Positions 24,516 through 49,621 of a stretch of 64,000 bases of DNA are shown here, one piece after another (positions within the stretch are counted from its first letter, which is position 1; every line of letters starts with the position of its first letter). The DNA lies in contig JAUYKZ010000006.1 of assembly GCA_030704845.1 (NCBI GenBank), positions 18,046-82,045 of the forward strand, read 5' to 3'. The notes below the pieces were generated by a model, which was not told the DNA's origin, ran no database searches, and saw only the letters and a list, made by a program, of their open reading frames with translations. Source of the stretch: an archaeon (lineage in GTDB: Archaea > Nanobdellota > Nanobdellia > Woesearchaeales > GW2011-AR9). Both the position numbers and the translations under genes were made by a program.

Positions 24516-24544
24516 ATTTTCTAACCTACTAATGTTAATCTATT

Positions 24545-24647
24545 TATATACTAAAAGGAATTAGGTTTCTAGACCTAATTCCTTTGGTATGTATAAAGGG
24601 ATAGTTTTCCCTTTTACATACAAAAGGCTTCTGCCTTTTAGTATATA
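24545..24647. repeat. 103-nt element bounded by perfect 14-nt inverted repeats (TATATACTAAAAGG / CCTTTTAGTATATA), containing a perfect 13-bp-arm palindrome and a second imperfect palindrome
   Basis: Read directly; terminal motif TATACTAAA shared with the 31.4-kb and 49.5-kb repeat elements. Confidence 0.4.
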
Positions 24648-24649
24648 CC

Positions 24650-24686
24650 AAAATTCATAGATTTCTGTTCGGAATCTATGAATTTT
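24650..24686 (-). terminator. Perfect 14-bp-arm hairpin overlapping the stop of the 840-aa gene
   Basis: AAAATTCATAGATT-9nt-AATCTATGAATTTT followed by T-run. Confidence 0.4.
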
Positions 24687-30897: not shown

Positions 30898-31392
30898 CTA
30901 TCCCTTAACCTTCTTAACCTTTAATTTCTTTAATTTCTTGGTTATAGGAATTGTTTGATGACAATGTTCGCAATCTACAAGATATGCTTGGGCACCTTTG
31001 AAGGATTTTCTTTGATATGTCGTAGTTCCTTCACCATCTTTGCCACAATATGGGCAGGTATATTTTGCTTCTAAAGTCAAAGATTCTTCATGTTCTTTTT
31101 TCTCTTCCTCATACCCGCACGAATGACAAACATATTTAATTGCCCTAGTTTTAACCTTACCTTTCTCAATTGGTTTGCCCATTTTATCTTTTTTACATTT
31201 AGGACATTCTTTTCGATAAACCCAAGCTAGAACATTTCCATCATCAATAGAACGATTACTAAAGTAAAGACATTCATCCATTGACGTTGGTACCTTAAGA
31301 GCCATATTTTCAAAATAACCCTGATTATATTTAAATGTTGTTGTTAAGTTACTCCAAGCCACTAGTATACCTATTGAATAATAGACTTTCAA
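30898..31392 (-). CDS. Zinc-ribbon protein with four CxxC pairs
   Basis: CPKCKKD, CHSCGYEE, CPYCGKDG, CEHCHQT. Confidence 0.5.
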   Translation of the reverse strand: MKVYYSIGILVAWSNLTTTFKYNQGYFENMALKVPTSMDECLYFSNRSIDDGNVLAWVYRKECPKCKKDKMGKPIEKGKVKTRAIKYVCHSCGYEEEKKEHEESLTLEAKYTCPYCGKDGEGTTTYQRKSFKGAQAYLVDCEHCHQTIPITKKLKKLKVKKVKG

Positions 31393-31407: not shown

Positions 31408-31502
31408 TATACTAAAGTGCCAAAGCTTTCGAACTTATTTTTGGCACTTGATATATATATAAAATGCGTTAATATATTCGAAATCTAACGCATTTTAGTA
31501 TA
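31408..31502. repeat. Copy A of a ~95-nt element with two internal hairpins and TATACTAAA...TTTAGTATA termini
   Basis: Near-identical (2-nt indel in an AT run) to the reverse complement of 49461..49554. Confidence 0.7.
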
Positions 31503-31596
31503 AATAAATCAAATAAAAAAAGGTTATGATTTTGAAGGAAACGAAATACCTTCAAATAGAATAGTCTGTGAATATTTTAGAATTTGCCGATAACAG

Positions 31597-32418
31597 TTAA
31601 ACAATCCGTTTTATTTCGATACTTATCGCTTTCCGATTAACTCGAATATATCTTGGACATTCTGTCCATTCAAGGTCGTTTACCTTACAATAAGAGATTA
31701 ATTTTTCTTTCTCGGCATCAGTAGAAAATGCTACAACTACAACAAATCCGAGATCCGTTGGATGAAGGATTTCTAATGAAGATAAATCGTCAATTACTTT
31801 TTTTCGTATTGTTAAAAGGGAATTTATTCTTTCTGGAAGTTCAGTTAATTTTTTTTCGATGATATTTAAAGAACTTTCATCTACTAACTCTTCTACATTT
31901 AATTTATTAAATATCTTATCATCCTTACAAGAAATAAATCCGCCAACATGAGCTTCCACTAATTTCCATTCTCCAAAGCTCCCAACCATAATATCAGCAT
32001 AATTACCATCACAAAGAGAAGTGCCGATACAACCAGAAACGTCCATGATTACTAAACAATCGTTCTTTTCACATAATTCAAATATTCTCTTAGAATTCTG
32101 TTCTGCAAAATATCCCCCGGGATTTTCATAAAGGAAAGCCGACGGTTTCAGTTTGATTAATTTATCTTCAAGGTCAATCAAATCGATAACCGCATCATTA
32201 CATTTTACTTCAATTTCTTGCAATCCTTGTTTTTTAGGAAGAGTTCTATAACTTAACCAGCCACCTTCTTCCGGAATTAATATTGTACTACTTTCAGCAA
32301 AAATAGAAAGGGCAGCTGCAATAGCAGTATTACCTCGAGTGGTTATCTTTAGATGAGAATGACCAGTAAGACTTATAATTTTATTAGATACGACTTCCAC
32401 GACACTTAAATGATTCAT
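31597..32418 (-). CDS. Short fold-type-I PLP-dependent enzyme-like protein (aminotransferase/desulfurase-like). Tentative.
   Basis: TTRGNTAIAAAL, IMDVSGCIG, SFGEWK motifs. Confidence 0.35.
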   Translation of the reverse strand: MNHLSVVEVVSNKIISLTGHSHLKITTRGNTAIAAALSIFAESSTILIPEEGGWLSYRTLPKKQGLQEIEVKCNDAVIDLIDLEDKLIKLKPSAFLYENPGGYFAEQNSKRIFELCEKNDCLVIMDVSGCIGTSLCDGNYADIMVGSFGEWKLVEAHVGGFISCKDDKIFNKLNVEELVDESSLNIIEKKLTELPERINSLLTIRKKVIDDLSSLEILHPTDLGFVVVVAFSTDAEKEKLISYCKVNDLEWTECPRYIRVNRKAISIEIKRIV

Positions 32419-32441
32419 GAACCTTTAATTAAGCTAGTTTA

Positions 32442-33545
32442 TTAAATATCTTTCCGTGAGAATTTTAATTCCCAAAGTAAGCGGTTAATCACGGCTTTCT
32501 GGGAAACAATACCTGAGAGTTTACCTTTCTCCATTACCGGAAGTACTTCCATGTTTCTTTCAGAGAATAAGCGGAAAGCATCATAAACCGATTGGGAAGG
32601 TTTCAAGGAATCCACTGAATTATAACCTGGAGTGATTTGGCGAAGAGTAATCCTTGATTGAATCTTTGGAGGCACTTTTGAGATTTGTTTTATATCAAGT
32701 AATCCAAGAAAATTTTTTCCTTTCACAACAAAAACATCCACTTCAGTATTTTTATATTTCTGAAGGAAATTACTGAAACTCATGCTGGGATCTAATGTAA
32801 GAAATTTTTTCTGAATTAATTCTTTAAGAGAGATTTTACCTAGAGCTTCCTTGATAACAACCTGTTCATAACTTGCACCGGCAATGAAATATAAAAACAT
32901 CCCAATAAGAATAAACCAAAGACCACCACCACTAAAGGTAAGTATTCCAAGAACGATAAGTAGTAGTGCTACAATTCTTCCACCATAAGAAGCTATCCTG
33001 GTAGCTTTTCGTAGATCTTTATAATGCCAAAATAATATTGCTCTAAAGGCTCTTCCACCATCTAAAGGATATCCTGGTACAAGATTAAATGCTCCAACAA
33101 TGAAATTTATTTGGTAAAGGTAATATGATATGGCATGAAGATATCCATTTCCATTAAAGGCATAGATCAAATAAAATAAACCGGCGATAGAAAATGAAAA
33201 TATTGGTCCAGCGATGGCCATCAGGAATTCTGAAGCAGGTTCAAGATCTTCCCTAGTTATTCCGGCAACTCCACCAAAAAAGAACAAAGTAATACTCTCA
33301 ACTTTGATTTTTCTAAATCTAGCTACAATTGAATGACTTAGTTCATGTAATAAAACTGAAACGAAGAGAAGTAATGAAGAGATAACTCCCATAACCCAAT
33401 ATTCGATAGAGGTATATGTCGGGAAGAAAACTGGAAAGAAAGCCGTAGATAAACTCCAGGTCAAAATAGCAAAGATAATCCACCAAGAATAATGTAATCG
33501 GATATCAATCCCTAAAATAGTAAAGAGTTTTAAACCTTTCTTCAT
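32442..33545 (-). CDS. Site-2 protease (M50) family metalloprotease with a C-terminal CBS domain pair
   Basis: HELSHSIVAR HExxH in a TM helix; multiple TM; CBS-like C-terminus. Confidence 0.8.
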   Translation of the reverse strand: MKKGLKLFTILGIDIRLHYSWWIIFAILTWSLSTAFFPVFFPTYTSIEYWVMGVISSLLLFVSVLLHELSHSIVARFRKIKVESITLFFFGGVAGITREDLEPASEFLMAIAGPIFSFSIAGLFYLIYAFNGNGYLHAISYYLYQINFIVGAFNLVPGYPLDGGRAFRAILFWHYKDLRKATRIASYGGRIVALLLIVLGILTFSGGGLWFILIGMFLYFIAGASYEQVVIKEALGKISLKELIQKKFLTLDPSMSFSNFLQKYKNTEVDVFVVKGKNFLGLLDIKQISKVPPKIQSRITLRQITPGYNSVDSLKPSQSVYDAFRLFSERNMEVLPVMEKGKLSGIVSQKAVINRLLWELKFSRKDI

Positions 33546-33624
33546 AATATTAAGAAGAATTATTTACTTTAAAAGAATGTGTGTTCATTTTAGAATAAGA
33601 AAAAAAAGAAAAAAAAGTTAAAAA

Positions 33625-34176
33625 CTAATTGTTACAAGTTCCCGCTTTTTCACATTGGGATAGATGAGTAGTTACATCCATACATCCAGAGTAGGTAGTA
33701 TTATCAGTTCTACACCAACTATTGTAACTTTGACAATCAAATGTTCCTGTTGAATTAGTTGCTACAGCCATATTACAACTAGGAGCTGCAACTGGAGCTA
33801 CACATTGAGCATCTTTAACACCAACCGTTTCACATCCGTCTTCACAAGCAGTAACACATAATCTTACAATACCATTAACACAACTGACTTCTGTTAATTG
33901 GCCAGGAACCCTAGTTGAACATTGATCCCAGGTACCAACATCTTTTTTAGTACTCGTATCGTATCTAATTGAACTATTTGTAATTTGTCTACAATTAAAT
34001 CGAGTTGGATAATCCTTACAAGCACCAGCAATAGCTTGACCAGCAATAGCGCCACCTTCATCTTCCCAATCAAGGTTACCTTCAAAATCCTCTGACGTTT
34101 CCGGTTCAGTAGGAACACAACCAACAACAAGAACAAATAACGCTAAAACACTTAACACCAAAATTAATTTCTTCAT
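33625..34176 (-). CDS. Small Cys-rich secreted protein (lipobox-like Cys after the signal peptide), paralogue of 34261..34620
   Basis: Signal peptide + VVGCVPTEPETSEDFEG; about 16 Cys. Confidence 0.5.
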   Translation of the reverse strand: MKKLILVLSVLALFVLVVGCVPTEPETSEDFEGNLDWEDEGGAIAGQAIAGACKDYPTRFNCRQITNSSIRYDTSTKKDVGTWDQCSTRVPGQLTEVSCVNGIVRLCVTACEDGCETVGVKDAQCVAPVAAPSCNMAVATNSTGTFDCQSYNSWCRTDNTTYSGCMDVTTHLSQCEKAGTCNN

Positions 34177-34260
34177 CTATAAACACCTCATTAAATAAAT
34201 TTTTATTAGAAGAAGAAGAAGAAGAAGAAGTATATATATCTTTCTAAAAATTAAAATTAA

Positions 34261-34620
34261 TCATCTACATGAAGATTTATTTCCACAGCCATCAACACAT
34301 TCAACTTCACAACGCACAAGAACACCTTCAGAACAACTATAATGCAACATTAAATTATCGTAACATTCATTTAACAAAGAAAATGAAACACCAGTTGAGG
34401 TTCTAACATTAACTGAAGCACCATTATCATTACACCCATAACGAACATAACGCTGACAATTATCTGATTGAACAAGATCATTTTCAAATGCATGACCCGC
34501 GATTGAACCTCTGATTGCTTGTTCCTCAAACTCTTCTTGATTTAATGGCTCGCTAGGTAGACAACCGGAAATTAATAATAATGTTAAAAAAATAATTATT
34601 GACAATAATATTCTCTTCAT
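34261..34620 (-). CDS. Small Cys-rich secreted protein, paralogue of 33625..34176
   Basis: Signal peptide + LISGCLPSEPLNQEEFEE; about 12 Cys. Confidence 0.5.
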   Translation of the reverse strand: MKRILLSIIIFLTLLLISGCLPSEPLNQEEFEEQAIRGSIAGHAFENDLVQSDNCQRYVRYGCNDNGASVNVRTSTGVSFSLLNECYDNLMLHYSCSEGVLVRCEVECVDGCGNKSSCR

Positions 34621-34904
34621 AATACTTTGAAATAAAATAAAGGTATAAATATCTTTTTAATTTTTTACAGATTGATTTAGACTGCGATCAAACTCTTGAT
34701 AGAACTATTATAGAACTAGTGATTGCTCATCATTAAAGAGCTAGGAAAAACGCAAATAGTTTGTTTGAATATAGCTAAAGCTAATTTTGAAAAAATTAAA
34801 AAAAAAAGAGTAATGAAAAAATCATTACTTGTTTTTGTAAAAAAAAACAAGAGGACAAAAGCCCTCTTGTTTTGTAAGGAAAACCATATGTACATTTAAC
34901 ACAA

Positions 34905-37800
34905 AAATTGTGAACGTTAGTAAGCGCATGCTGAATACCTCGTTGCCTTGGTACTTACACATCGCTTCTATCAAACGGCTGTTCTTGCCGTGTTCTAAGG
35001 TGTCTCTTTTCAAGGGGCACTTCGTGCTTAGATGCTTTCAGCACTTATCGCTTATAGCGTAGCTGCCCGGCGTACCTTGTCAGATAACCGGTCGACCAGA
35101 GGCTACGAACCTTCGTTCCTCTCGTACTAAAAGGTCCTTCCTTTCAGACACCCAACACTCCCAGTAGATATCAAACAAACTGCCTCACAGCGTTCTGAAC
35201 CCAGCTCACGAACCCTTTTAATGGGTGAACACCCCCACCCTTGGCAGCTTCTGCACCGCCAGGATAGGATGAGCCGACATCGAAGTAGCAAACCGCGCCG
35301 TCGATATGAACTCTCGGGCGCGACAACTCAGTTATCCCCGGAGTAACTTTTCAGTCATTCCCAGCCCTCATTAAGAAGGCATGGGAGTTCGCTAGGCCAC
35401 ACTTTCGTGTTTGAAGTTCTTTATGTTCGAATTTCAATCAGGCTGGCTTATGCCCTTGCACTCAACTCCGGATTTCTAAACCGGATGAGCCAACCGTTGG
35501 GCGCTATTGATATCTTTTCAACAGCGTGCCACCCCAGCCAAACTGTCCACCAACCGGTGTCCCTTCAAAAGAAGGTAAGTGATGTAATTCATGAAAAGTG
35601 GTGTTACATCGTTGCCTAAGCCAGTATCTGACGACATTGGCCTCAAACGGCTCCCACTTACGCTATATAGCACGAACCACAACACAGCGACAGGCTACAG
35701 TAAAGTTTCACGGGGTCTTCGCTTCCCACTGGAAGTCCCTGGCCTTTGCACCAGGAAAGTGTATTCGGGAGACTCTAGGTTGGGACAGTGGCGATCTCGT
35801 TACACCATTCATGCAAGCCGGCATTCAACCGGCAAGGTATTACGCTACCTTAAGAGAGTTATAGTTACTCCCGCCGTTTACCAGCTCTTCACTCCGTTGA
35901 AACGAAGCTTAAAGTACTGGCACTGGGCAGATGTCACCTTCTATACACAGCGTTACCGCCTAGCAGAAAGTTAAGTTTTTGTTAAACAGTCGGACCGCCT
36001 TTGTTACTGAGCCCTGACATCGCATCCATACGGATACGAAAGCAGGGATCCCTTATACCGAAGGTACGGGACTAATTTGCCGAATTCCCTAACCTAGATT
36101 AAACTCACACATCTTAGGCTTCTCACCTAGGGGCACCTGTGCCGGTTCTGGGTACGGTTACCTTGTATCTATCGTTGTTCCCTTTTCAGGGACTCCAGAA
36201 ATCAGCCAAACAGACCATAGGCCTGCTATTCTACAGTTTACTCTGGTTCTCATCATTACGATACTCCCCAGACTTATCTGCATTAACACTTCAGACAAGA
36301 AGTGTTAGCTTATCCCAAAGCGTCAGAAACAACGCTTGTGTTGCCACGTATAACAAAGTAGTAGTGGAGTATTAACCACTTTCCCTTTCCCGTACATCCG
36401 TTAGGAGTACAGTTAGGACCGACTAACCCTTGGCTGATGAACATCGCCAAGGAACCCTTGCCCTTACGATGACAGGGATTCACACCCTGCTAGGATCCTA
36501 CTCTCACCAGGATTTTCATTCCATAGAGGTCCACTTCTCCTCACGGAGAAGCTTCTGCCCTCTAAAGACGCCTGCCTATACCCACTTATCGTGGTCTATG
36601 GTATCGGCAATCAGCTTAGACCCGTCAATCTTCCGGGCCCACGACCTCAACGAGTAAGCTGTTACGCACTTTTTAAAGGATGGCTGCTTCTAAGCCAACC
36701 TCCTCGCTGTCTCAGATCACGGACACCGTTAACCCTTTCTCACTTAGCTGATATTTAGGGGCCTTAACCATAGGCTGGGTTGTTCCCCTTTCGGAAATCA
36801 AGTTTACCCCAAGATTCCCTGTTTCCCAGAGTCTACAACGTTATGGCATTCGGAGTTGGACAGAAGGCCGACAGGTTTCCCCGCCTAAGCTTCCTATCCG
36901 TAGCTCTACAACCATAACCATCTCGTCTGAGACTTGACTAAGGTCAATTTCGGCAGGAACCTGCTATCGCCGAGCTCGATTGGCTTTTCACCCCTATTCC
37001 CAGGTCAGAAGAACACTTGCACGTAGAACCTCTTCAGACCTCCACGAAGTTTTACCCTCGCTTCATCTTGCCCAGGAATAGATCGCTCGGTTTCAGGTCG
37101 TGTCCATGTGACTTATGGCACTTTCATACCACTCCCCTCGCATGCTGCGGGATCTTGCTTTCGCTTAGGATGCCCCTTTTCGGGTTATCCTCGCCACATA
37201 AACACACTCCCTGGCCCGTTATTCAAAACGCACGGTGGAACTCCTAAAAGCACCACCATACTATAACTACTAGGTTTCAGAGTCTTTTAACTCCCTGTTA
37301 AGGGTTCTTTTCAACTTTCCCTCACGGTACTGTTTTCTATCGGTTTCGAAACGTATTTAGTATTAGAGGTTAATGCCCCCCAGATTCCCACTCCAATATC
37401 GAGGAGTAGTACTCAGGATACTTCCTAAGACCTTTCTTCTTTCCTCTACGGGACTATCACCCTATAGTGTGTTCCTTTCCAGGAAACTTCGAGTCAGAAT
37501 TAAGGCCGTAAGAGAAGTCCTACAACACCACATCTCCATTACCTTACGGCAACGGATTCAGTTTGTACTGGACCGCTTTCAGTCGCTCTTACTAACGGTA
37601 TCTCGGTTGATTTCTTTTCCTGCAGGTACTAAGACGCTTCAATTCCCTGCGTTCCCCGGCTCCAAAGAGCCATCAAAGAGAGAAGTCTCATTCGGAAATC
37701 TTTGGTTCAAAGCTTACGTTCAACTCGCCAAAGCATATCGTAGCTTGTCACGTCCTTCATCGGCGTTTCGAACCGAGTCATCCACCTAGTAGCGTACCTA
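34905..37800 (-). rRNA. 23S rRNA; ends are approximate
   Basis: Sarcin-ricin loop AGTACGAGAGGAAC (reverse complement at ~35110); 5' GGTGGATG...GAAGGACGTG; perfect 19-nt inverted repeats flank it at 34885..34903 and 37807..37825. Confidence 0.9.
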
Positions 37801-37960
37801 GATGTGTTAAATGTACATATGGCTCATTACTATGATGTGATAGCGTATAAGATTAAACCCATACTCCATCATGTTCAACCATTGCCGCCAGGATTTGGCC
37901 ATTCCTGAAGGCACCTATTGCCCGTAACCTCTTTTGAGAGATTTTCGGGAACATTAAATG

Positions 37961-38054
37961 TGGACCCGACGGGATTTGAACCCGTGGCCTCCTGCTTTCT
38001 ATGCTTGTTAAACAAGCGTGCAAGGCAGGCGCTCTCCCCCTGAGCTACGGGCCC
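37961..38054 (-). tRNA. tRNA-Ala(UGC) with a 21-nt intron at canonical position 37/38; CCA not encoded
   Basis: GGGCCCGTAGCTCAGGGGGAGAGCGCCTGCCTTGCA[CGCTTGTTTAACAAGCATAGA]AGCAGGAGGCCACGGGTTCAAATCCCGTCGGGTCCA. Confidence 0.8.
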
Positions 38055-38148
38055 TTTATTGAGGATTGTGATATTTTTATTTGTTAAACAACGTTAACCT
38101 TCCATGATATCAATCAAATTTTTTCTCATGATATTGTGAGTATAAAAA

Positions 38149-39622
<1,474 letters not shown>

Positions 39623-39820
39623 AGAAAATTTGTTTATTTGTACGATCGCGTACTTCCATCTTAAAAGAATTTCTGGATCACCTCGTTCGCACTCAAGATT
39701 AATTGAGCACACATGTTTTAAGATTGGCGATAAACAAAAACGGATAAGTTTTTGATGCTTGCTTAGAGCAAACAATCACCATCCCCGAGGACAAACCTCG
39801 AGTTTTATTCTTGGAATGCA

Positions 39821-39840
39821 GGTTGTTTATAAATGTTTCC
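39821..39840 (-). promoter_or_regulatory. Candidate rRNA operon promoter (GGAAACATTTATAAACAACC on the minus strand)
   Basis: BRE/TATA-like; ~190 nt upstream of the 16S 5' end; motif shared with the rps13 and rpl41e promoters. Confidence 0.3.
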
Positions 39841-40028
39841 CTATTATTTAATTCAATTCTACGGGTGATTTTCAATATTTTTACAACAGAATAGTTTCTA
39901 TAATTATTTTAATGCCTTTTTTTATTAAAATCTTTAGATTAATTCATTGAATTAATTCAAATAAAAGTAGAAAATAAATTAACAATCTGGTTCTAACTAT
40001 CAATGAGATTTAATTAAGTTAAGTATTT

Positions 40029-40078
40029 AAAAATAAATTAAAATAAATTAAAATAATTTAAAATAGATTAAAATGATC
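40029..40078. repeat. Five tandem 10-bp units AAAAT(R)RWTT: phased A-tracts, predicted intrinsically curved DNA
   Basis: aaaataaatt aaaataaatt aaaataattt aaaatagatt aaaatgatct. Confidence 0.3.
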
Positions 40079-40098
40079 TTAAAATTATATTCAAAAAT

Positions 40099-40206
40099 CT
40101 AACTAGCTTGGATTCTTCTACGTCTTTTAGCCTTCTTCATTTTCTTGCGTTGCCATTTCCAACGCATTTGGCCTTTCTTTTTCCAACGTCGTGAGCTTCT
40201 TTTCAT
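40099..40206 (-). CDS. rpl41e: 50S ribosomal protein L41e (eL41), 35 aa: MKRSSRRWKKKGQMRWKWQRKKMKKAKRRRRIQAS. Absent from the six-frame ORF track because it is under 60 aa.
   Basis: WKKKGxMRWKW matches the archaeal L41e core as recalled; TTTATAAA box 25 nt upstream implies a leaderless transcript. Confidence 0.55.
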   Translation of the reverse strand: MKRSSRRWKKKGQMRWKWQRKKMKKAKRRRRIQAS

Positions 40207-40295
40207 CTTTTGCTGTGGAGAAGTAATCCGTTTATAAATGTTTCTACGAGCAATTGTGTATCTTACCCTAAACACTTAACCTTCCGATAAGTTGT

Positions 40296-41318
40296 TTAAC
40301 CATAAACTCTCTCCCACTCTTTTAAAAATAATTGAGCGATATTCTCGTCTTCAATAATCAAAATATTTTCATCATTTCTGGTATTTCCACCACCAGTTGG
40401 ATTCATTGAACCAGTGATAACAGTTTTGCCATCAATAATGAATACTTTATGATGCATATTTTGTTTATTCTGATCTTTAACAACATCAACACCTTGATAT
40501 AATAACTGCTGATACACAGAATCTTTGGTAACTTGCCTTGCTTCCATAACCCCTCGAATAGTTAGATTATCCAATTTTTTGAGCAGTAGAATGTTTGAGA
40601 TCTCTTGGCTAGTGAAAGAAAAAGTCATGAAATGAATTGATTCTTTAGCTTTAGCAAGTTCCCCTTTTATTCTTTCAGTGCAATGATCTTCCGGGCAGAA
40701 ATAATTTTGTATTTTTGTTTCACTTAACATTACACGCGAATTTTTTACCGGATCTCCTTTCTTAAAAGTTCCAGACCACATCTCTTGGAATTCGTCATCA
40801 TAATTTTGAGCGAGAATTTGCGATTCAATCAGGAGAAGATTATTATCGTTTTTTGTAGCCCCGTTTAGGGTTGGATTCATTGAACCGGTAGATATTTTTT
40901 TGCTGTCAACAATACAAAATTTATTGTGCATCAAACCCCAAGAATCTTCCTGAACAAAAGGATAATCAAATTCATCCAGATAATCATTATCAGTTACAAC
41001 TTTAACATCAATAGAAGATGATTTTTCCAAAAGAACTTGCTGGACTTTTGGAAGATTGAGTTCAAACAATGCACAATGGATAGATTCCTGAGCTGATGCT
41101 AAGAAATTAGTGAGTATAGTTTCGCAATCTTCTTGCGGACAAAAATTGGTTTCAATTGAACCGTAATCTTGAACGAAAGATTCAGTTATTGAAGAGGGGG
41201 AATCTAACTCAGTTTGTGATAATAAAGAAGTTGTTCCACTGTAAATAAATGGAATTATTAAAATTAGAAAAATTGTAATAAATAGTTTCTTAACTGTAAA
41301 TCTTCTTTTTCCAGCCAT
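40296..41318 (-). CDS. Phospholipase D superfamily protein with two HKD motifs and an N-terminal membrane anchor
   Basis: HNKFCIVD...GSMNPT and HHKVFIIDGKTVITGSMNPT. Confidence 0.75.
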   Translation of the reverse strand: MAGKRRFTVKKLFITIFLILIIPFIYSGTTSLLSQTELDSPSSITESFVQDYGSIETNFCPQEDCETILTNFLASAQESIHCALFELNLPKVQQVLLEKSSSIDVKVVTDNDYLDEFDYPFVQEDSWGLMHNKFCIVDSKKISTGSMNPTLNGATKNDNNLLLIESQILAQNYDDEFQEMWSGTFKKGDPVKNSRVMLSETKIQNYFCPEDHCTERIKGELAKAKESIHFMTFSFTSQEISNILLLKKLDNLTIRGVMEARQVTKDSVYQQLLYQGVDVVKDQNKQNMHHKVFIIDGKTVITGSMNPTGGGNTRNDENILIIEDENIAQLFLKEWERVYG

Positions 41319-41420
41319 AAGTCGCTTAGAATTAAAATTGTTTATTAAGATTTAGAGAATTGAGGATAATTGTCTACACAGAAACCTATTTAAACCACAA
41401 AAATAATTCAAAATTAAAAG

Positions 41421-42128
41421 ATGGTGAAGAAGTTTATCATAGTAACGTTAATAGTACTAACAATTATTCTTATAGGTTGCAAGCCCGGAGAAACCTCTAG
41501 CGATTCTTTAGATAACGCATCAATAATTGGAGGATCGGATGTTGAAACAACTAACGAGAATCTTCCTGAAGGCCAATGCCTCCCTCAATGGAAATGTGTT
41601 AGTTCTACCTACAAAGCTTTCCAAAGTGAAGATTGTTCTTTTGGAGAAAAAACGGAATGTAAATTAGGTTGTGAAGATGGTAAATGTCATCTCCCAGCAA
41701 CTTGTGAAAGAAAATTTGCATGTAAGAACACAAGAGATAAAGGATTGCAAGTAGAAGACTGTTCTTGGGTTGGCGTAATTCAATGTGAATGGGGATGTAG
41801 TGAAAATGCATGTAATCCTGAACCAGAACCAAGTAATGTAACGACTAGCACTGTTAATGAAACAGAGGAAGTTATTCCAAAAGCAACAGTTTATTCAGTA
41901 AAACAAGGAGAAAGTATTTCTTTAAGTGCCGGAGGAACAGAACATAACATCAGCATTTATATTATTGAAACCGGAAAAGCTCGATTAAATGTAGATCAAT
42001 ACAAAACTGAATGGTTGGAGGAAGGTGGTAACGCAACATTTAGCACAGGAATAACTATTTACATTAAAGAAATATTATTTCAACCATATGATGGTGGACA
42101 AAGATCTGTTGGATTTACAACAGAATGA
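41421..42128 (+). CDS. Cys-rich secreted lipoprotein-like protein
   Basis: Signal peptide ...ILIGCKPGETSS; about 14 Cys in CxxxxC patterns. Confidence 0.5.
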   Translation: MVKKFIIVTLIVLTIILIGCKPGETSSDSLDNASIIGGSDVETTNENLPEGQCLPQWKCVSSTYKAFQSEDCSFGEKTECKLGCEDGKCHLPATCERKFACKNTRDKGLQVEDCSWVGVIQCEWGCSENACNPEPEPSNVTTSTVNETEEVIPKATVYSVKQGESISLSAGGTEHNISIYIIETGKARLNVDQYKTEWLEEGGNATFSTGITIYIKEILFQPYDGGQRSVGFTTE

Positions 42129-42137
42129 TTTAGTTTC

Positions 42138-42482
42138 TTAGTTTAATTTTTTCCCTTTAGAATATCCAATATAACAATCCATAAATTGATTTATCAATCC
42201 ATGGGCAGAATGATCTATCCTGACTGTTAAATAAACTGTAACATCATCGATCGTTACAATTCTAAATCGATCCGAATTGTCTTTCAAAAATCTTTCAAGA
42301 GTTGAAGATTTGTTAACATCCCCTTGCAATTTCAATGCTGAGCTACCATTAATAGAAGTGTCTGTATACCATTTTCCATCCCTACCTCTCGCAACAAGAA
42401 ACACAGTATTAGATCCTATTGAAGAAATCATGCGTGAAGTGGTATATAATTCCATACTCGCAGCGGTATTTTCTAAACCCAT
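42138..42482 (-). CDS. Hypothetical protein
   Basis: ORF only. Confidence 0.3.
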   Translation of the reverse strand: MGLENTAASMELYTTSRMISSIGSNTVFLVARGRDGKWYTDTSINGSSALKLQGDVNKSSTLERFLKDNSDRFRIVTIDDVTVYLTVRIDHSAHGLINQFMDCYIGYSKGKKLN

Positions 42483-42549
42483 TATTTTCGAAAATGATTA
42501 GATGAATTAAATAAATTTAGGTTATTCTCCATATACTTACGTTAAATAG

Positions 42550-42873
42550 TTATGAATAATCTATTAACAACACTGCATAACCCCAAGCACAAATTCCCGC
42601 CGGTTCAAGTTTGTTAAATTGATTATCACAATAAAAAGAAGGCACGTAAGTTACATGAACCAAATTATTTACCCCGGCCAGGTTAGCTGCTTTTTTTAAT
42701 GCTTCTCTAGATTCATCTATTGAAACAGGATAAAGATTATATCCCTTAAGATTACCGGTTGGTGGAGTAATTATTTTAACTGGATTATCATCTTTATCTC
42801 TTATTGGAAGATAAGAATGTCTAGTTAATCTTTCTAGATCATTTAAAGAACCTTCAAATAATAAAATAGTCAT
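42550..42873 (-). CDS. Hypothetical protein
   Basis: ORF only. Confidence 0.3.
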   Translation of the reverse strand: MTILLFEGSLNDLERLTRHSYLPIRDKDDNPVKIITPPTGNLKGYNLYPVSIDESREALKKAANLAGVNNLVHVTYVPSFYCDNQFNKLEPAGICAWGYAVLLIDYS

Positions 42874-42901
42874 AAGAAAAAGTATAAAAAAAAAGAAGAA
42901 T

Positions 42902-43423
42902 TTATGCTTTTCGCAATCCCCGACTAGTCTTTGCAGAAGATGTTTTACCTTGGAATACTCTACTGTGATGTTTTTTATCCTGTAACCATTGCAAATTCTT
43001 GTCAGATTTTATAACCGGATGATGCGGATCTACAAAGATTATTTCAAACCAGTAAAACTTACCATCGTCAGCAACCCAGTATGAGTTTAGAACAGTTAAG
43101 TTAACGAATTTTTTTTGCGCTCTTTCTTCAGCAATTTGTTGGTAACTCTTATCAAGATTAAGTCTGATACCATATCTCTTAGGTCTTCTTCCACCACCAG
43201 GCTTAGTACGTGTATGTCCACCACGTGGAACTCTTTGTCTTACAACAACGATACCTTGCTTAGCTTTGTAACCGAGAGAACGTGCTTTATCAATTCTTGT
43301 CGGTCTTTCAATTTTTATAGTGGTCGGTTCTCTTCTCCACTGAATTAAGCGTTCTCGCCATAATTCTGGCATGTTTGTTTTTGGTTTTTTCCATGCTTCC
43401 CTTACTCTTTGGTATAATCCCAT
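42902..43423 (-). CDS. rpl15e: 50S ribosomal protein L15e (eL15)
   Basis: PTRIDKARSLGYKAKQGIVVVRQRVPRGG; VLNSYWVADDGKFYWFEII. Confidence 0.9.
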   Translation of the reverse strand: MGLYQRVREAWKKPKTNMPELWRERLIQWRREPTTIKIERPTRIDKARSLGYKAKQGIVVVRQRVPRGGHTRTKPGGGRRPKRYGIRLNLDKSYQQIAEERAQKKFVNLTVLNSYWVADDGKFYWFEIIFVDPHHPVIKSDKNLQWLQDKKHHSRVFQGKTSSAKTSRGLRKA

Positions 43424-43630
43424 TTTTTAGCCTCCAGTTTTAGATTCTATATTACTCATCTCAGATTCAGGTAAGCTACTACCCACATCTCTGAATGATG
43501 GAAAGAATTGACAGTTTCTTTAAAAAGGTTTCCTAAAGGATGGCTCATGTTCCAAATAGACGACAACTTTAAATAATCCAAGATTCATCAAATTAGATAT
43601 ATATAGTGATAAAAAACGAGGTGTGTCTTA

Positions 43631-44773
43631 ATGGAAATAACTCCAGCAATTAATACGAATTTTCTTCAAATAGATGAAAGCGTAAGTCTTTCTCAAATGA
43701 TTGGAAAACTGAAAGAATCAGATAAAAAATCAGGACTCATTTTTCAGAAAGGAAAGTATATGGGAATTCTTGATAAAAAAAGAATACTTCAAACAAAGTT
43801 AGATTCTACTAATGTCGGATTAAGTAAATTTATACAAAGAACCCCAATGATTAACGAACATGCAGATATTATTGAAACATCGGCTATGATGTTTAAAAGT
43901 AATATTGACCTTCTTCCAGTTGAAAGACAGAAACAAGTAATTGGAGTAATTTCCAGTCTTAACCTAGCTAAAATTGGTTCGCAATTGCCAGAAACATCGG
44001 CAATGAAAGTTAAAGATTGTACTTTAGATAAACCAACCTTAATCCAAAAAGATGATTCTATCGCTAGAGCAATAGAAATCATGTATCAAGAACACACTGA
44101 ACACATCCCAATCTTTGATAAAGGTAAATTGTATGGAATAATCAGTTCACAAGATGTTCTTAAAAAATATTTAAGTTGGCCTTCCCAAAGATCAGTATCT
44201 TCAAGATTAGGGAAAGGTGTCGGAAAAGTAACCAGAGGATCTCAAACAGACACTTCTAAATTTGCTTTATTACCGATAGAAAATTTAAGCACGAACCAGG
44301 ACTTGGTAACGATAAGTAGTAAGAGTAGTTTAAAGGATGCCGTGAGTTTAATGGTGAAGAAAAATATTTCTGCTTTAATTGTAATGGATGGAAATAAGTT
44401 GATTGGATTACTTCCGGTAAAAAATGTACTTAGAGCAATTGGTAGTTTAGAAATTCCAGAAAATTTCAACATTAAATTTGTTGGATTAAAAGAATTGGAT
44501 TGGCATTCTTACGATGTTACTGCATTGAAAAAAATTGCAGGTAATGAAGCATTTAAATTACAGAGAGCTCTCAAAAATGATTTTGATCTAGTAATTCATA
44601 TGAAAGAATATCAAAAAGATGCCAAGAAACATAAATACTCTGTTCACATGAAAGTTGAATTCCCTGGCAGGATTGTAACCGTTTCACAAGATGATTGGGA
44701 TTGGAAAACCGCGGTTAGAAAGACTTTTGCTAATGCTAAGAATAAAGTTGGCAAACAATTTAAAGGAAAATAG
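43631..44773 (+). CDS. Four CBS domains fused to a C-terminal ~100-aa domain resembling ribosome hibernation factor HPF/YfiA/RaiA (S30AE family)
   Basis: Four CBS-like repeats; C-terminal NIKFVG...FKLQRALKNDFDLVIHMKE...VHMKVEFPGRIVTVSQDDWDWKTAVRKTF aligns by eye to E. coli HPF (QLNITG...FAKLEQYFDRINQVYVVLKVE...LHVNGGEIHASAEGQDMYAAIDGLIDKL). Confidence 0.55.
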   Translation: MEITPAINTNFLQIDESVSLSQMIGKLKESDKKSGLIFQKGKYMGILDKKRILQTKLDSTNVGLSKFIQRTPMINEHADIIETSAMMFKSNIDLLPVERQKQVIGVISSLNLAKIGSQLPETSAMKVKDCTLDKPTLIQKDDSIARAIEIMYQEHTEHIPIFDKGKLYGIISSQDVLKKYLSWPSQRSVSSRLGKGVGKVTRGSQTDTSKFALLPIENLSTNQDLVTISSKSSLKDAVSLMVKKNISALIVMDGNKLIGLLPVKNVLRAIGSLEIPENFNIKFVGLKELDWHSYDVTALKKIAGNEAFKLQRALKNDFDLVIHMKEYQKDAKKHKYSVHMKVEFPGRIVTVSQDDWDWKTAVRKTFANAKNKVGKQFKGK

Positions 44774-44795
44774 AAATTAAAAAATAATTCTTTTT

Positions 44796-45152
44796 TTATT
44801 GATTTTCATTCATTTTTTTTCTTCTAAATTTCTCAGCATTTTCTTCGCTAACAAATCTATAGATTTTTCCATCAATCTCAGCTTCAACCACATCTTCAAT
44901 GTCCATTAATGGTTCACCAGTAAGAGCATCTTTTCCTAACTGACCAGCGCCACTTGCGCCTTCCATGAAACCTTCTTCCCAAGAATCAATTTCATCGTCG
45001 TCTTCCAATTTCTCGCGACCTTCCTCAGTGTAGATATCTTCATCTTCTTCACCGTGTTCCATAGAATCTTTTTTTTCTTCAGAAGTTTCTTCCTCATCAA
45101 TGCCTTGTTCTTCAGCTGCATCGTATTCCTCTTCTTTTGTCTTTGTTGTCAT
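44796..45152 (-). CDS. Highly acidic protein with a C-terminal degenerate YHS/TRASH-like motif lacking the metal-binding cysteines
   Basis: IDGKIYRFVSEENAEKFRRK vs YHS consensus YKGKTYYFCSEGCKEKF. Confidence 0.4.
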   Translation of the reverse strand: MTTKTKEEEYDAAEEQGIDEEETSEEKKDSMEHGEEDEDIYTEEGREKLEDDDEIDSWEEGFMEGASGAGQLGKDALTGEPLMDIEDVVEAEIDGKIYRFVSEENAEKFRRKKMNENQ

Positions 45153-45374
45153 ATCTTCTAGGAAGAAAAATGAGATTTAAAAGGTTTTCTAGAGTAGAGG
45201 AGCTGTATGAATCAAATAAAAACAATAAAAGGGTTTATAAACTAAACGTTCTTTTTCAGAAAAACGAGTAAAATCCTTCAGAGTATAGAAGTTTTTAATC
45301 GATCTTTGATTGATCTTGATATAAATTATCAAGAAATAGATTAAGGACAGAAACAACCAAGAGGTTAAACGAAA

Positions 45375-45596
45375 ATGAATGACAGAAATAATCGGCGGGA
45401 TAACAACCGACCACAAGGCGGAAATCAATACGGCGGCGGAGGCTTTAGAAGTTCAGGACCAAGCACAGGACCAAGAGAAATGCATAAAGCAACTTGTTCA
45501 GAATGTGGAAACGAATGTGAAGTTCCTTTCAAACCAACCGAAGGAAAACCAGTGTATTGTAGAGACTGCTTCAATAAAAGAAAACCACGATTCTAG
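45375..45596 (+). CDS. Small protein with a Gly/Arg-rich N-terminus and a C4 zinc ribbon, putatively nucleic-acid binding
   Basis: CSECGNECEVPFKPTEGKPVYCRDCF; GGAGG-like RBS (GAGGTTAAACGAAA ATG). Confidence 0.5.
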   Translation: MNDRNNRRDNNRPQGGNQYGGGGFRSSGPSTGPREMHKATCSECGNECEVPFKPTEGKPVYCRDCFNKRKPRF

Positions 45597-45743
45597 ATAA
45601 GCATCCTTAGTTTTCTATTTTCAGGTAAAATCTTTTAAGAAATTTTTTATTATTTTTTTTTCACATTTATTCTAATTTAAGTTTATAGAATTAAATTTAT
45701 AGAAATGAACAATAAATGAAATGGGTTAAATAAATTATAATTC

Positions 45744-46202
45744 TCAGATTACAATATACTCTTCTTCCTTAGAAAGATCTTGCAATCGCAATACTTCTTT
45801 AACAGTATCCAGAATTGAAGATATTTTCGGTTCAAACTCTGACAAGTTTTTAATAGAAACCCACTGATACTCAGAATATTCTTCATTTAAAATAACTTCT
45901 CCTTCAAGATGAATTGCTAAATAATGTGGAAGAATCATAGAATTTCCAGCCTTTTTTCTGAAAAGTAAATTATAACTAAATTTGGGATAAATTTTAATCT
46001 TAAAATTTTCTCCAACTTCTTCGTTCTTTTCTCTTTGTAATCCTTCAATGATATTTTCGTCAGTAGTTTCCATCTTTCCACCAATGAATGAAAATATTCC
46101 ATCATAGTCAGCTTCCCCTTTTCTTTTACATAGAAGAACTTTAGTTTGATCACTAGAAAGAACTACTATTTTCTGGCAGTATTGAAAGTTGTATTGTTCC
46201 AT
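45744..46202 (-). CDS. NUDIX hydrolase
   Basis: Nudix box GGKMETTDENIIEGLQREKNEEVGE. Confidence 0.75.
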   Translation of the reverse strand: MEQYNFQYCQKIVVLSSDQTKVLLCKRKGEADYDGIFSFIGGKMETTDENIIEGLQREKNEEVGENFKIKIYPKFSYNLLFRKKAGNSMILPHYLAIHLEGEVILNEEYSEYQWVSIKNLSEFEPKISSILDTVKEVLRLQDLSKEEEYIVI

Positions 46203-46255
46203 AGATCCGGTTTATTAAAGATTATTTTTAAGATTTATGTTAGAATATTGATATT

Positions 46256-47491
46256 TTAAACAAAATCTATTTCCATTTCAAGCTGATCAGCAGTTGGATA
46301 TTCCACAACTATTGCCGGAACTAAACCAACATTCTTTATAGCTTGAGATTTCTTCTGAACAATCTTTTTAGAAGTAAGAATTCTTAATTTGGCGGTATCA
46401 ATTACCATCATGTCATCTTCTGCTTTGGTGATTTTTTTTAAATCAGGCAGTAGTTTAGTTAATTTTGCTAAGATTTCTACCTTGTTAGCTTTAGATAATT
46501 CTTCCCGATATTGAAAACCAGGTTTTAATTCAGGGAGATAGATTGCTCCCCGATGAAAAAGACCTTCCTTATCAACGATATCAAACGGCCTTTTACTAAA
46601 TTCTCCTTCTCTCTTAATTCGATTTGCAAGTTGAGTTCTATCTTTCAATTTAGCTGTACAAAGATGTACCGAAAGAGAATATCCTTTATTCTCAGCATAT
46701 TTCATTAATTTAAAACCAGTAATTAAAGAACCTTCAATTGCGTAACTGAATTGTTCCTTAGTTTTCATTCCTCTTTCTGACAATTCAGATAAAGTATTAT
46801 CTGCTCTTTCCAACTCATTCAAATTAATGAATTTAACTTTGTCATGGATGAAATCAATTAATTGAGTTAATTCTTTTTCTTTATCTGGAACAAGCGGAAC
46901 TTCTACCCCAATATCCCAGGAATATTCTGCAGCAAGTTTAATTCTATCCCATAATTTTTCGTCATCTAAATCGAAATGGAACCTAATTTCATCTAAACCG
47001 GCATCAAATAATTTTTTAAGAATACTTGAAGTTACTAAATTTAATGAAGTATAAAGATGAATATGAAATTCAGGGCCAAAAGTGTTTTTCAAAGCGATGA
47101 TATAATCGCAAACTCGATCGACTTTCATTAAAGGATCTCCACCAGTAATACCTGCCCCTTTAGCACCCATAGCTTTAATTTCAGAAAGAATATCTTCAAT
47201 CTCTCTTACTTCTCTCTCGTTAGCAAATTGTACGTCGTGACCATATTTTTGATCTGAAACAGGGCAGAAGTAACATTTTCTTGGACACATGCCAGTTACA
47301 AAGATAACTACCTTTTCTCCTTTTACACAGTACTGGCAGCCTTTCGGCAATTCTCCTTGATTATAGGAATAAAATTCATTTACTTTAACCATAAAGCTTG
47401 AATTTAAGACTTGCTTTAAAAGATTTACTGGAGAGATGGTGATTATGAGATTTGTGAAGGTGTTATAATTGATTATATCACAAAAAGCCAC
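46256..47491 (-). CDS. Radical SAM domain protein. The true start is probably the internal Met at 47392 (MVKVNEF...).
   Basis: CPRKCYFCP CxxxCxxC motif. Confidence 0.7.
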   Translation of the reverse strand: MAFCDIINYNTFTNLIITISPVNLLKQVLNSSFMVKVNEFYSYNQGELPKGCQYCVKGEKVVIFVTGMCPRKCYFCPVSDQKYGHDVQFANEREVREIEDILSEIKAMGAKGAGITGGDPLMKVDRVCDYIIALKNTFGPEFHIHLYTSLNLVTSSILKKLFDAGLDEIRFHFDLDDEKLWDRIKLAAEYSWDIGVEVPLVPDKEKELTQLIDFIHDKVKFINLNELERADNTLSELSERGMKTKEQFSYAIEGSLITGFKLMKYAENKGYSLSVHLCTAKLKDRTQLANRIKREGEFSKRPFDIVDKEGLFHRGAIYLPELKPGFQYREELSKANKVEILAKLTKLLPDLKKITKAEDDMMVIDTAKLRILTSKKIVQKKSQAIKNVGLVPAIVVEYPTADQLEMEIDFV

Positions 47492-47515
47492 TGGTCACTT
47501 AGACAACCGCAAGCA

Positions 47516-47860
47516 ATGTTTATATATACAAACAAATCGGAAAAAGGAAGAAAAATGAAAATAAAATATACTTCAAAAAATCAAAGAATGAACGTAGAAA
47601 TAGATTCTGATTCAGTAAAAGATACGTTCAAAAAACTTGCTGAATTTCAAGAAGTTTTTGATGAGTCTAGTTGTACATTATGCAATAACGATGACCTGCA
47701 ATTTGTAGTTAGAACCGTTGATGGAAATGATTTCTATGAACTAAAATGCAAAAAATGTTCTGCTAAACGAGCTTTTGGTCAGCATAAATCTGGAGGTAGT
47801 TTATTCCCAAAGAATGGTTGGCATAAATGGAACGGCAATCAGAACGGAACAACCGGATAA
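47516..47860 (+). CDS. Small zinc-finger protein (CxxC...CxxC)
   Basis: CTLCNND ... CKKCSAKR. Confidence 0.35.
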   Translation: MFIYTNKSEKGRKMKIKYTSKNQRMNVEIDSDSVKDTFKKLAEFQEVFDESSCTLCNNDDLQFVVRTVDGNDFYELKCKKCSAKRAFGQHKSGGSLFPKNGWHKWNGNQNGTTG

Positions 47861-47863
47861 ATT

Positions 47864-49057
47864 ATGAACATTCAAAGGGTACGTTATAAGGATATCGAAC
47901 AAATTCCTCATCTTCATATCAAGAAAGATTTTAAACAAGATTTTCAGGGAACTGCGCCTGCCCCATTCATTGGACGGTTTGGTTATCCATACGTTAACGT
48001 AGGTATTCTATCCCCACAAATAATGGGTGAAACTTCACAGTACGATTCTCCGAGACATTGGAGTAACTCTAACACTTCGATAGGGCAAGTTGCTAGTTTA
48101 AGATATTCATTAGTTAATTCACGAACCCAAGCAACAGTAAAACAATTGTCTGGAAAATTCTTAGATGTGATTAAAGAAGTCGGCATGGCCAAAAGGCCCG
48201 CGGAAGTAGAAGTAGCATTGAAAACAAAACCATCTTTGAAAATGAATTCTGAAAGAGAAGTTACCCCATTTGGCCCAGGTAGTGAAATGATGAAAGCTAG
48301 AATAACAAGTAACGTAAACGTTGATTCAAGAGTTGAGAGAGTTATTTCTGATACTGATCTTAAAGCATCTTCGGCAATAATAGATTTGTATAAAAAAGGA
48401 TTTGAAGAAAGTACCTTAAACAAATTGATTTCCGTTGGTAATCTTGGAATTAAAAATAATCGAAAACTTGTTCCAACAAGATGGAGCATAACCGCTGTTG
48501 ATGATACTATTGGTAAAGAACTGATTAAAGATATCAAAGATTTTTCGGTGGGAGAATATGCTGCTTATTTTGGTGGGGAATGGGGAAATTATTATTTGTT
48601 ACTATTTTTTCCAGAAGTGTGGAGTTTTGAATTGTTTGAAACTTATCTAGCATCACCAGTTAATCCTTGGAGTAAAGGCGGACATAAATATTCTACCGAT
48701 TATGAAGCTTATGAAGGTAGAAAGAATTATGCGGAAGAAACTGCGGGAGGATATTATGCTTGCAGAATTGGAGTTCTTGAAAAAATTAAAATGTTAAAGA
48801 GACAACAGTCTTGTTTAGCTTTAAGATTTATCACGCCAGAATATAACATCCCTTTAGGCGTCTGGGTTTGCCGAGAAGCAACAAGGAAAAGTACGGAGAC
48901 TAAGCCGATATATTTCGGTGATGAGAAATTATTATTACAATATGCTAGAACATTTATCCAGAATAAATTTGGGTTTGATTTAGATTTATTATTAAAAGAA
49001 TCTAAACTTCTCAAAGAGAAAAAACAGCAAGTTAAATTGAAAACTTTTTTTACATGA
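47864..49057 (+). CDS. Conserved hypothetical protein (397 aa)
   Basis: ORF 4 nt after the previous gene; no confident motif. Confidence 0.4.
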   Translation: MNIQRVRYKDIEQIPHLHIKKDFKQDFQGTAPAPFIGRFGYPYVNVGILSPQIMGETSQYDSPRHWSNSNTSIGQVASLRYSLVNSRTQATVKQLSGKFLDVIKEVGMAKRPAEVEVALKTKPSLKMNSEREVTPFGPGSEMMKARITSNVNVDSRVERVISDTDLKASSAIIDLYKKGFEESTLNKLISVGNLGIKNNRKLVPTRWSITAVDDTIGKELIKDIKDFSVGEYAAYFGGEWGNYYLLLFFPEVWSFELFETYLASPVNPWSKGGHKYSTDYEAYEGRKNYAEETAGGYYACRIGVLEKIKMLKRQQSCLALRFITPEYNIPLGVWVCREATRKSTETKPIYFGDEKLLLQYARTFIQNKFGFDLDLLLKESKLLKEKKQQVKLKTFFT

Positions 49058-49460
49058 AAATCGGCGAGAAAACTTAGGTTTTATGAGAGAGGATAATTCT
49101 CGCTAATTTTCTGTTCCAAAAGTCCACGGACTTTTGTTACCTAACCAATAACAACTTAACTTCCCTTTCTGCAGTGATAAACAAACTTTATAAATAAAAG
49201 ATTGATTTGAATTTTCGTCAAGGAGGTGGTTTTTGATGGTAAAAGATATCGATCAAGAATTCGAAGAATTTGTCAGGAAGAACCCCCAAAAACTAACGAA
49301 AAATCAAAGAGAGATTTGCAAGATACTTGGCATATCCCTTAGTTAGTTTTGAAATCATATGCCACAATGGCGCGAGATATAATCTAATTCATTTCCTGGG
49401 GGGAATTATGAGTTTGATTCATAAAAAATTATCTTGCCGCCAACGTGGAACCTTTTTTTC

Positions 49461-49554
49461 TATACTAAAATGCGTTAGATTTCGAATATATTAACGCATT
49501 TTATATATATAAAGTGCCAAAAATAAGTTCGAAAGCTTTGGCACTTTAGTATAC
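49461..49554. repeat. Copy B of the ~95-nt hairpin-rich element, inverted relative to copy A
   Basis: Reverse complement matches 31408..31502 except for a 2-nt AT-run indel. Confidence 0.7.
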
Positions 49555-49621
49555 ATAGAAAGGCTCTCAAATAAGGAGATATAGAGAAAAATTTATAATC
49601 CCTCTTCCCTTAATCTAGATA

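Follow-up and report, generated by a model that had tools for sequence, protein, structure and literature searches.

RUP of Streptococcus pneumoniae (107 bp) and the Correia or NEMIS elements of Neisseria (~105–155 bp) are bacterial MITEs (miniature inverted-repeat transposable elements) that are flanked by TA. Here we describe a repeat of 93–95 nt from a Pacearchaeota-like DPANN archaeon, two copies of which (A and B) lie in inverted orientation within a 64,000-nt stretch of contig JAUYKZ010000006.1 (positions 18,046 to 82,045; hereafter the window), on either side of the archaeal 16S-tRNAAla-23S ribosomal RNA (rRNA) operon (34895–39618, − strand). Like RUP and Correia, the repeat is ~100 bp long, non-coding and nearly palindromic, with terminal inverted repeats (TIRs) and TA on both flanks. 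It is likewise intergenic, often at the 3′ ends of genes, its ends can supply TATA-like promoter sequence, and its many near-identical copies break short-read assemblies. It differs from both in being found in a DPANN archaeon, in showing no sequence similarity to them, and in that each TIR is itself a hairpin with a covarying stem, only a terminus of 7–9 bp being common to the members of the family.

The repeat also resembles the REPIN/BIME class of bacterial repetitive extragenic palindromic (REP) sequences, which are inverted doublets of short palindromic units with a short spacer, 70–110 bp overall; there too doublets vary less than single units do, the hairpin is kept through compensatory changes, and units form extragenic arrays (PMC3116915). 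In contrast to those systems, the conserved foot here is TATAC/TACTAAA (TATAC(T)AAA) rather than GTAG or CGTC, the copies have TA flanks, the available sequence yielded no Y1 gene and no gene for a REP-associated tyrosine transposase (RAYT), and identical copies are found in different species, suggesting horizontal spread. Small TIR-bounded non-coding repeats that are lineage-specific and intergenic have been catalogued from archaeal metagenome-assembled genomes (MAGs), and MITEs are reported to be dense in certain DPANN and Woesearchaeal genomes (PMC11602168). That census gives neither a mechanism nor a hairpin-unit anatomy. Archaeal MITEs are already known; the REPIN-like unit structure is the sole feature of the repeat that could prove more.

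We consider it likely that A and B both belong to a non-autonomous mobile DNA element, a palindromic repeat of the MITE class. The evidence for a mobile repeat comprises dispersed copies, orthologous sites filled in one species and empty in the other and vice versa, a family of related hairpin units, TA flanks and junctions, and compensatory changes in the stems; from these we infer the act of transposition, the duplication of TA and the existence of a mobilizing enzyme.

The two copies flanking the rRNA operon

The original prediction had described a near-identical inverted pair with a 2-nt indel in an (AT)n run. Two such copies are present and the indel is a pure one, but copy B ends at 49553 rather than 49554 (Table 1), and the indel is a GA at the edge of the TA run: lying between GGCACTT and (TA)5, present in A and absent from B, it is the sole difference between the copies, which share perfectly identical stretches of 43 nt and 50 nt. 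The MITE-like inverted termini described earlier are present as a perfect 9-nt pair, TATACTAAA...TTTAGTATA. Both internal hairpins were also found, hairpin 2 with the 14-nt loop given before, although the loop of hairpin 1 is 15 nt long and not 16 nt. Within the window, matches to each of the 33–36-nt hairpin patterns were confined to copies A and B at up to 3 mismatches (0 expected from 100 shuffles). Folds of the element, as single-stranded DNA (ssDNA) or as RNA, are far more stable than those of shuffled sequence (z = −5.2 to −6.7), and the whole doublet can alternatively form one long hairpin (fold of copy B, + strand). It has no coding capacity, as no open reading frame (ORF) fits within its 93–95 nt.

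Table 1. Coordinates of the repeat, its parts, a related array and the nearby promoter signals in the window.
Feature	Position	Strand	Remarks
Copy A, 95-nt doublet	31408..31502	+	TA-TACTAAA, hairpin 1, GA(TA)5, hairpin 2, TTTAGTA-TA
Hairpin 1 of copy A	31416..31448	+	AGTGCCAAA, 15-nt loop with TTTCGAA, TTTGGCACT
Central spacer of copy A	31449..31460		GA + (TA)5, from direct reading of the letters
Hairpin 2 of copy A	31461..31496	+	AAAATGCGTTA, 14-nt loop with TTCGAAA, TAACGCATTTT
Copy B, 93-nt doublet	49461..49553	−	orientation opposite to copy A
Array of four related hairpin units	24547..24693		TATAC/GTATA-type feet; ssDNA fold z = −13.2
TATA box of zinc-ribbon gene	31321..31338	−	ACATTTAAATATAATCAG; conserved, outside the element; ~70 nt past copy A
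TATA box and transcription factor B recognition element (BRE) of 113-aa gene	49587..49599	+	AAAAATTTATAAT; conserved, not part of the element; 22 nt before ATG 49622

Unitigs assembled independently by Logan from run SRR13727534 end within both copies (at window positions 31433, 31477, 49489 and 49527), and the repeat therefore belongs to the reads and not to one assembly. It also explains why the short-read assembly of the window's organism is fragmented at these points. Each of the two copies has co-directional genes on both sides and takes the same orientation relative to them, which bears out the earlier statement that they are placed alike with respect to the neighboring small genes. The rRNA operon lies between the copies.

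Further copies and element-free orthologous sites

A scan of one genome per GTDB species with the hairpin 1 pattern returned 71 loci. Just one of them (L127) is the element; the other 70, which were uninspected, are unrelated by organism name and mostly bacterial. L127 lies in a Candidatus Pacearchaeota MAG (JAUYJY010000011.1, 7505–7597), upstream of a TauE gene and 47 nt from the contig end, and is identical to copy B at 93/93 positions by BLAST. Its proteins are recorded under the Pacearchaeota MAG only and those of the window carry Q8Q01 locus tags, and so L127 represents a different assembly. A metagenome scan gave one further copy (L196, JGI contig Ga0209541_10392949), an exact pattern match that reads as the same sequence. 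It begins ~10 nt past the stop codon of a 190-aa gene, and its orientation relative to the adjacent gene is opposite to that of copies A and B. A third locus is a Logan contig from the window's organism (L206, SRR13727534_167385) which ends 27 nt into another copy, overlapping the last codons of an ORF. A count of further 95-mer copies, which the original prediction had called for, accordingly gave three loci beyond A and B. In total the doublet was found at no fewer than five loci (A, B, the end of L206, L127 and L196) in at least two species, with zero mismatches over the available sequence. Three of these doublets fall within the ~93 kb sampled from the window's organism, which extrapolates, roughly and from a small and partly biased sample, to tens per genome.

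At the protein level the 190-aa gene beside the L196 copy matches its orthologue in the window's organism with 82% identity, and at the nucleotide level with 81.5%, showing that this copy belongs to another species. Coding DNA of these lineages differs at ~21–23% of positions and the element at none. By our own estimate, the chance that a neutral 93-mer would stay identical by descent at such divergence is ~1e-10, and we therefore take the identity as a sign of recent spread. The same sequence in species with ~80% identical genes is in this respect a marker of recent DNA exchange between co-occurring Pacearchaeota, and a DPANN genome of ~1 Mb, streamlined as it is, still harbors a selfish repeat that is active or was so recently.

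The full-element pattern had zero matches in viral contigs, the unit-level pattern had 6, every one in hairpin-free sequence, and BLASTN against phage records gave zero matches. A pattern of the terminal repeats only (TATACTAAA N60-90 TTTAGTATA) hit at least 120 viral contigs once each; these were uninspected, and we set them aside as chance matches in AT-rich sequence, the pattern being too unspecific for collections of this size.

Orthologous sites were compared between species, so that site boundaries are not nucleotide-exact. Locus B is element-free in three contigs of relatives (L197, L199 and L200), whose intergenic region aligns on both sides of copy B. In these, the closest relatives (Nre protein 82% identical), the order is integrase, Nre, ~400 nt of intergenic sequence, a 111-aa gene, DUF655, Rpb4 and L21e. 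Locus A is element-free in four contigs of relatives that are 72–74% identical (L201, L202, L204 and L205), with the order M50 peptidase, MJ1341-like gene, a gene of 155–160 aa on the other strand, zinc-ribbon gene and Exo_endo_phos. The window has no 155–160-aa gene at this point. In its place stands a spacer of ~290 nt, and copy A is found there, in the intergenic region bounded by the zinc-ribbon gene and the stop (31597) of the 273-aa MJ1341-like gene. Conversely, the site occupied in L196 is element-free in the window's organism, where the next gene follows the orthologue of the 190-aa gene after 34 nt (L206). Judged from these comparisons, presence and absence is reciprocal between species at orthologous sites.

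The original prediction had also raised the idea that homologous recombination between the inverted copies would flip the 18-kb segment. A recombination substrate or invertible switch, in which the pair exists to flip the segment that carries the rRNA operon, would be in keeping with two inverted repeats that share the 43-nt and 50-nt stretches, and by our reasoning would leave co-directional genes at both junctions in either orientation. However, the features at junction B (Nre, conserved intergenic block, 113-aa gene, DUF655, Rpb4, L21e) and those at junction A (M50, MJ1341-like gene, zinc-ribbon gene, Exo_endo_phos) stand in the order seen in the relatives without the element, which places the 18-kb segment in its ancestral orientation. 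The element also stands singly at other loci, and no recombinase gene is adjacent. Stretches of 43–50 nt could in principle recombine, but nothing suggests that they have done so, and gene order at both junctions agrees with that of element-free relatives; we hold a switch to be exceedingly improbable. On our reading, two independent insertions left A and B inverted around the rRNA operon, as a by-product and not as a functional pair. A composite transposon was rejected as well, since the 18 kb hold core genes in ancestral synteny, as was a replication origin with origin recognition box (ORB) repeats around a DNA unwinding element (DUE), since the TA run is only 10 bp, at least five copies are dispersed, and no orc1/cdc6 gene is adjacent.

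Hairpin units, TA junctions and candidate enzymes

When the left half of the element was compared with the reverse complement of the right half, 36/48 positions were identical (75%), a score that 0/5000 shuffles reached even with the termini left out. All four stem differences between the halves are compensatory (G-C to A-T, C-G to G-C, and A-T to T-A twice), and TTTCGAA is common to the loops of both. On this comparison the element is an inverted doublet of one hairpin unit of ~45 nt, hairpin 2 being a diverged reverse-complement copy of the hairpin 1 unit. Stem pairs were tabulated from individual folds and not from a covariance model, as MAFFT misregistered the 3′ arms of the units.

Related units occur elsewhere. 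The array of four units in the window (Table 1) has TATACTAAA and TTTAGTATA as its outer termini, as in the doublet, with different stems and an internal junction AGTA-TA-TACC. Single further units with the same terminus lie beside the L127 copy and beside the L196 copy. Several units share a WAG-NTTYC motif near the loop, and their stems differ completely yet stay paired. In the window as a whole, TATACTAAA occurs 8 times against 1.24 expected and the gapped terminal pattern 3 times against 0.00 expected. Among the strongest hairpins of the window, those that are intergenic are all part of such units, save one at the rRNA operon (34842–34875).

Identity between copies starts and stops exactly at TATACT...AGTATA, and TA flanks every end that was examined. 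Where units abut, all three junctions read AGTA-TA-TAC(T/C), with one TA common to both units (window 24640–24649, L127 7592–7601, L196 ~91–100). A single shared TA is what insertion into, and duplication of, a TA beside an existing unit would give. If the G and C are taken out of such a junction (AGTATATACT), the result is the doublet's own centre, as read in copy B (ATATATATA), which would fit two fused units with disabled inner ends.

Another source for such structures would be ordinary bidirectional terminators, or hairpins that stabilize mRNA, duplicated by local recombination or gene conversion and not by transposition. Each hairpin has the form A-run, stem, T-run, copies lie at the 3′ ends of genes, and the hairpin 1 pattern matches the ~70 unrelated, mostly bacterial loci noted above, which we take, uninspected, to be ordinary hairpins of this type. 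Copies A and B, however, each follow directly on an older hairpin plus T7, so that an ancestral terminator-like T-run already precedes the insertion at both places. Local duplication cannot give identical 93-nt copies at five unlinked loci in different species, and conserved TATACTAAA termini and a TA junction rule are not features of terminators. This origin is in our judgment improbable. At these two sites at least, the copies thus have a terminator-like signal before them and the next promoter after them.

A miniature TIR element, one of the readings offered by the original prediction, gains support from the five or more loci in two or more species, the reciprocal presence and absence, and the related units with the same termini. 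The element would have the layout TA, TACTAAA-stem-loop(TTTCGAA)-stem, (TA)5, stem-loop-stem-TTTAGTA, TA. A transposase encoded elsewhere would move it, recognizing the conserved termini of 7–9 bp together with the subterminal hairpin or TIR. Insertion would take place at a TA in AT-rich intergenic DNA, typically just past gene ends and terminators or beside an existing unit, with duplication of the TA, as for MITEs such as RUP and Correia that are mobilized by IS630/Tc1-mariner elements. Under TA duplication, the empty allele at the 190-aa gene of the L196 species would have one TA only and read ...TAATTAAATATTTAA-TA-.... Such an IS630/Tc1-mariner-like cut-and-paste route is favored by the TA rule and by the ~100-bp palindromic TIR architecture, whereas the short conserved terminus, covarying stems, doublets and arrays fit a hairpin-recognizing, HUH/REPIN-like route better.

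That second route is a rival as to enzyme and mechanism only, since the conclusion of a mobile repeat is common to both. It proposes a REPIN- or REP-like doublet that is replicated through ssDNA hairpins by an HUH Y1 transposase of the RAYT type or the IS200/IS605 TnpA type, with no target duplication, the enzyme recognizing the hairpin and the conserved foot (TATAC/TACTAAA). We view it as unlikely on balance. An inverted doublet of ~45-nt palindromic units, 93–95 nt long and able to fold as one long hairpin, with stems that vary yet are always paired, a conserved foot and partly conserved loop, doublets that match one another beside diverged single units, and extragenic unit arrays, presents the defining observations for REPINs (PMC3116915). 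The IS200/IS605 and IS630 families are both present in archaea, and IS200/IS605 is the most widespread insertion sequence (IS) family there (PMC13343696). Against this route, no Y1 or RAYT gene was seen in the available sequence, which is not a complete genome, and the REP/RAYT papers that we found concern bacteria. We know of no RAYT/REPIN system in archaea. TA duplication is the simpler explanation for the TA flanks and for junctions that share a TA. Moreover, identity across species with ~80% identical genes suggests recent horizontal spread, whereas REPIN populations are described as mostly inherited vertically (10.1101/2022.05.22.493013).

A stronger form of the proposal sees in the doublet and the related units an archaeal counterpart of REPIN-RAYT, with an HUH or other hairpin-recognizing enzyme, ssDNA replication in ultra-small DPANN genomes and exchange between species; it seems doubtful to us. 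Were a REPIN-like system present, it would be to our knowledge the first of the REP/REPIN type outside Bacteria, and if the enzyme recognizes hairpins the REP/REPIN phenomenon would extend to archaea. Whichever enzyme is involved, the anatomy of the units (conserved foot, covarying stems and shared-TA rule) offers a handle for finding it.

Several points weigh against a TA-duplicating MITE. Neither the window nor a further ~30 kb from its organism yielded a transposase or an autonomous partner with these termini, and there was none beside any copy, where Pfam and NCBIfam searches of the window ORFs and flanking genes gave no transposase, RAYT or recombinase. In ~110 kb of related sequence no transposase was seen either, although no genome-wide search was aimed at transposases. 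Only 7–9 bp are conserved between units while the stems covary, which is unusual for the TIRs of DDE transposons; a short terminus with covarying stems fits hairpin-recognizing enzymes or a role at the RNA level better. The orthologous spacers have diverged, leaving flanks and junctions as the sole basis for TA duplication, and TATACT could be the element's own terminus rather than a duplicated target. The copies are essentially identical, so there is no variation between them with which to test constraint, and three doublets in ~93 kb are a small, partly biased sample and not the copy number of a complete genome.

Neighboring promoters, genes and minor observations

The original prediction had offered a shared regulatory module for the two small genes as another reading. 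The TATA box of the 113-aa gene lies between copy B and the gene, and that of the zinc-ribbon gene between copy A and the gene, where the conserved TTTAAATATAAT (~31334–31323) is ~22 nt upstream of the ATG. The zinc-ribbon gene had been placed at 30898..31392. It does adjoin copy A, but relatives conserve ATGGCTCTTAAGG at its start, which sets the start codon at ATG 31305 (~135 aa) and probably not at the mechanically called TTG 31392. Both genes look leaderless. As each neighbor has its own conserved TATA box between the element and its start codon, neither is driven from a promoter in the element.

A shared cis-regulatory module, or a small RNA gene, upstream of two small genes would have the central TTTATATATATAAA as an archaeal TATA box and the hairpins as operators or RNA. 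In its favor, copies A and B are oriented alike relative to the downstream gene, the hairpins are strong, the centre resembles an archaeal TATA box, and ends of the element can abut real ones. This last point is seen at the array, where one hairpin unit has its terminus overlapped by the likely TATA box AGTATATAAATAG (24540–24552, − strand, 27 nt before ATG 24515) of a gene for a 1078-aa surface protein, so that unit ends can form part of a promoter. Yet the relatives have the same conserved promoters on the orthologous genes at both sites, ~22 nt before each ATG, without the element, and both real promoters lie between element and ATG. The other copies adjoin unrelated genes, being past the stop of the 190-aa gene (in opposite orientation, L196), within the 3′ end of an ORF, and upstream of the TauE gene. 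Operators do not resemble 93 nt without differences at non-orthologous loci in species that differ at ~20% of coding positions. Rfam 15 gave sub-threshold matches only, of 16–23 bits to plant miRNA-precursor and sRNA models with gathering thresholds of 55–245 bits, and at E ≤ 1 the loci of copies A and B returned only noise. We find such a module or RNA gene upstream of the two genes very improbable; on a small ncRNA gene as such, which the original prediction also offered, the Rfam result speaks neither way. The mobile repeat removes the tempting but wrong reading of a regulatory module or rRNA-segment switch.

At the array (24547–24693), an upstream 840-aa ORF ends within the last unit. In the rRNA operon, the tRNA-Ala(UGC) of the 16S-23S spacer (37960–38054) is 95 nt long and hence intron-bearing. 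The hairpin at 34842–34875, a strong A-run, stem and T-run, comes directly after the 23S gene and probably serves as terminator of the operon. At locus A, the 155–160-aa gene of relatives (L201 2684–3166, L204 2479–2946), of unassigned family, was compared with window 31503–31596.

Signals outside the window were also noted. At ~1.1 kb past its right end, a Logan contig (L217, 13647–13671) ends 25 nt into a TATACT-initial sequence, TATACTCAACGCTAAATGAAATTTG, which suggests a second repeat family with the same terminus; a GC-richer hairpin with GGTTCGCTC precedes this end, and GGTTCGCTC is also found at the 5′ end of L127. To the left of the window, in the same organism, a GC-rich and structured-looking intergenic region of ~290 nt (L218, 18320–18610) has a TTTATATACT TATA box before it and a T5 run after it. 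It resembles a gene for a non-coding RNA of the RNase P or signal recognition particle (SRP) kind, and had zero Rfam matches at E ≤ 0.01.

At locus B, relatives carry a Xer-like tyrosine recombinase (Phage_integrase; L200 253–1059, L197 1543–2355) that overlaps the start of Nre. The window has at the same position (47516–47860) a 114-aa ORF with a weak CxxC zinc-binding match, which we considered as a remnant of that integrase and rejected, the two being unrelated. Between Nre and copy B lies a conserved, unannotated block (49183–49455) with zero matches in Pfam, NCBIfam and Rfam. It comprises a TATA box (49183–49195), a Shine-Dalgarno sequence (AAGGAGGTG, 49220–49228), an ORF of 36 aa (49236–49346, MVKDIDQEFEEFVRKNPQKLTKNQREICKILGISLS) and, after it, a long hairpin (49362–49379 pairs with 49430–49448) followed by a T7 run. 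The 36-aa peptide is nearly identical in 3 contigs of relatives.

Two nucleotidyltransferase modules were seen in the window (15646–16634 and 19811–21184). No partner was identified for the nucleotidyltransferase at 16086–16634. That at 20179–20754 adjoins a HEPN-type ORF, and together they have the appearance of a toxin-antitoxin-like pair.

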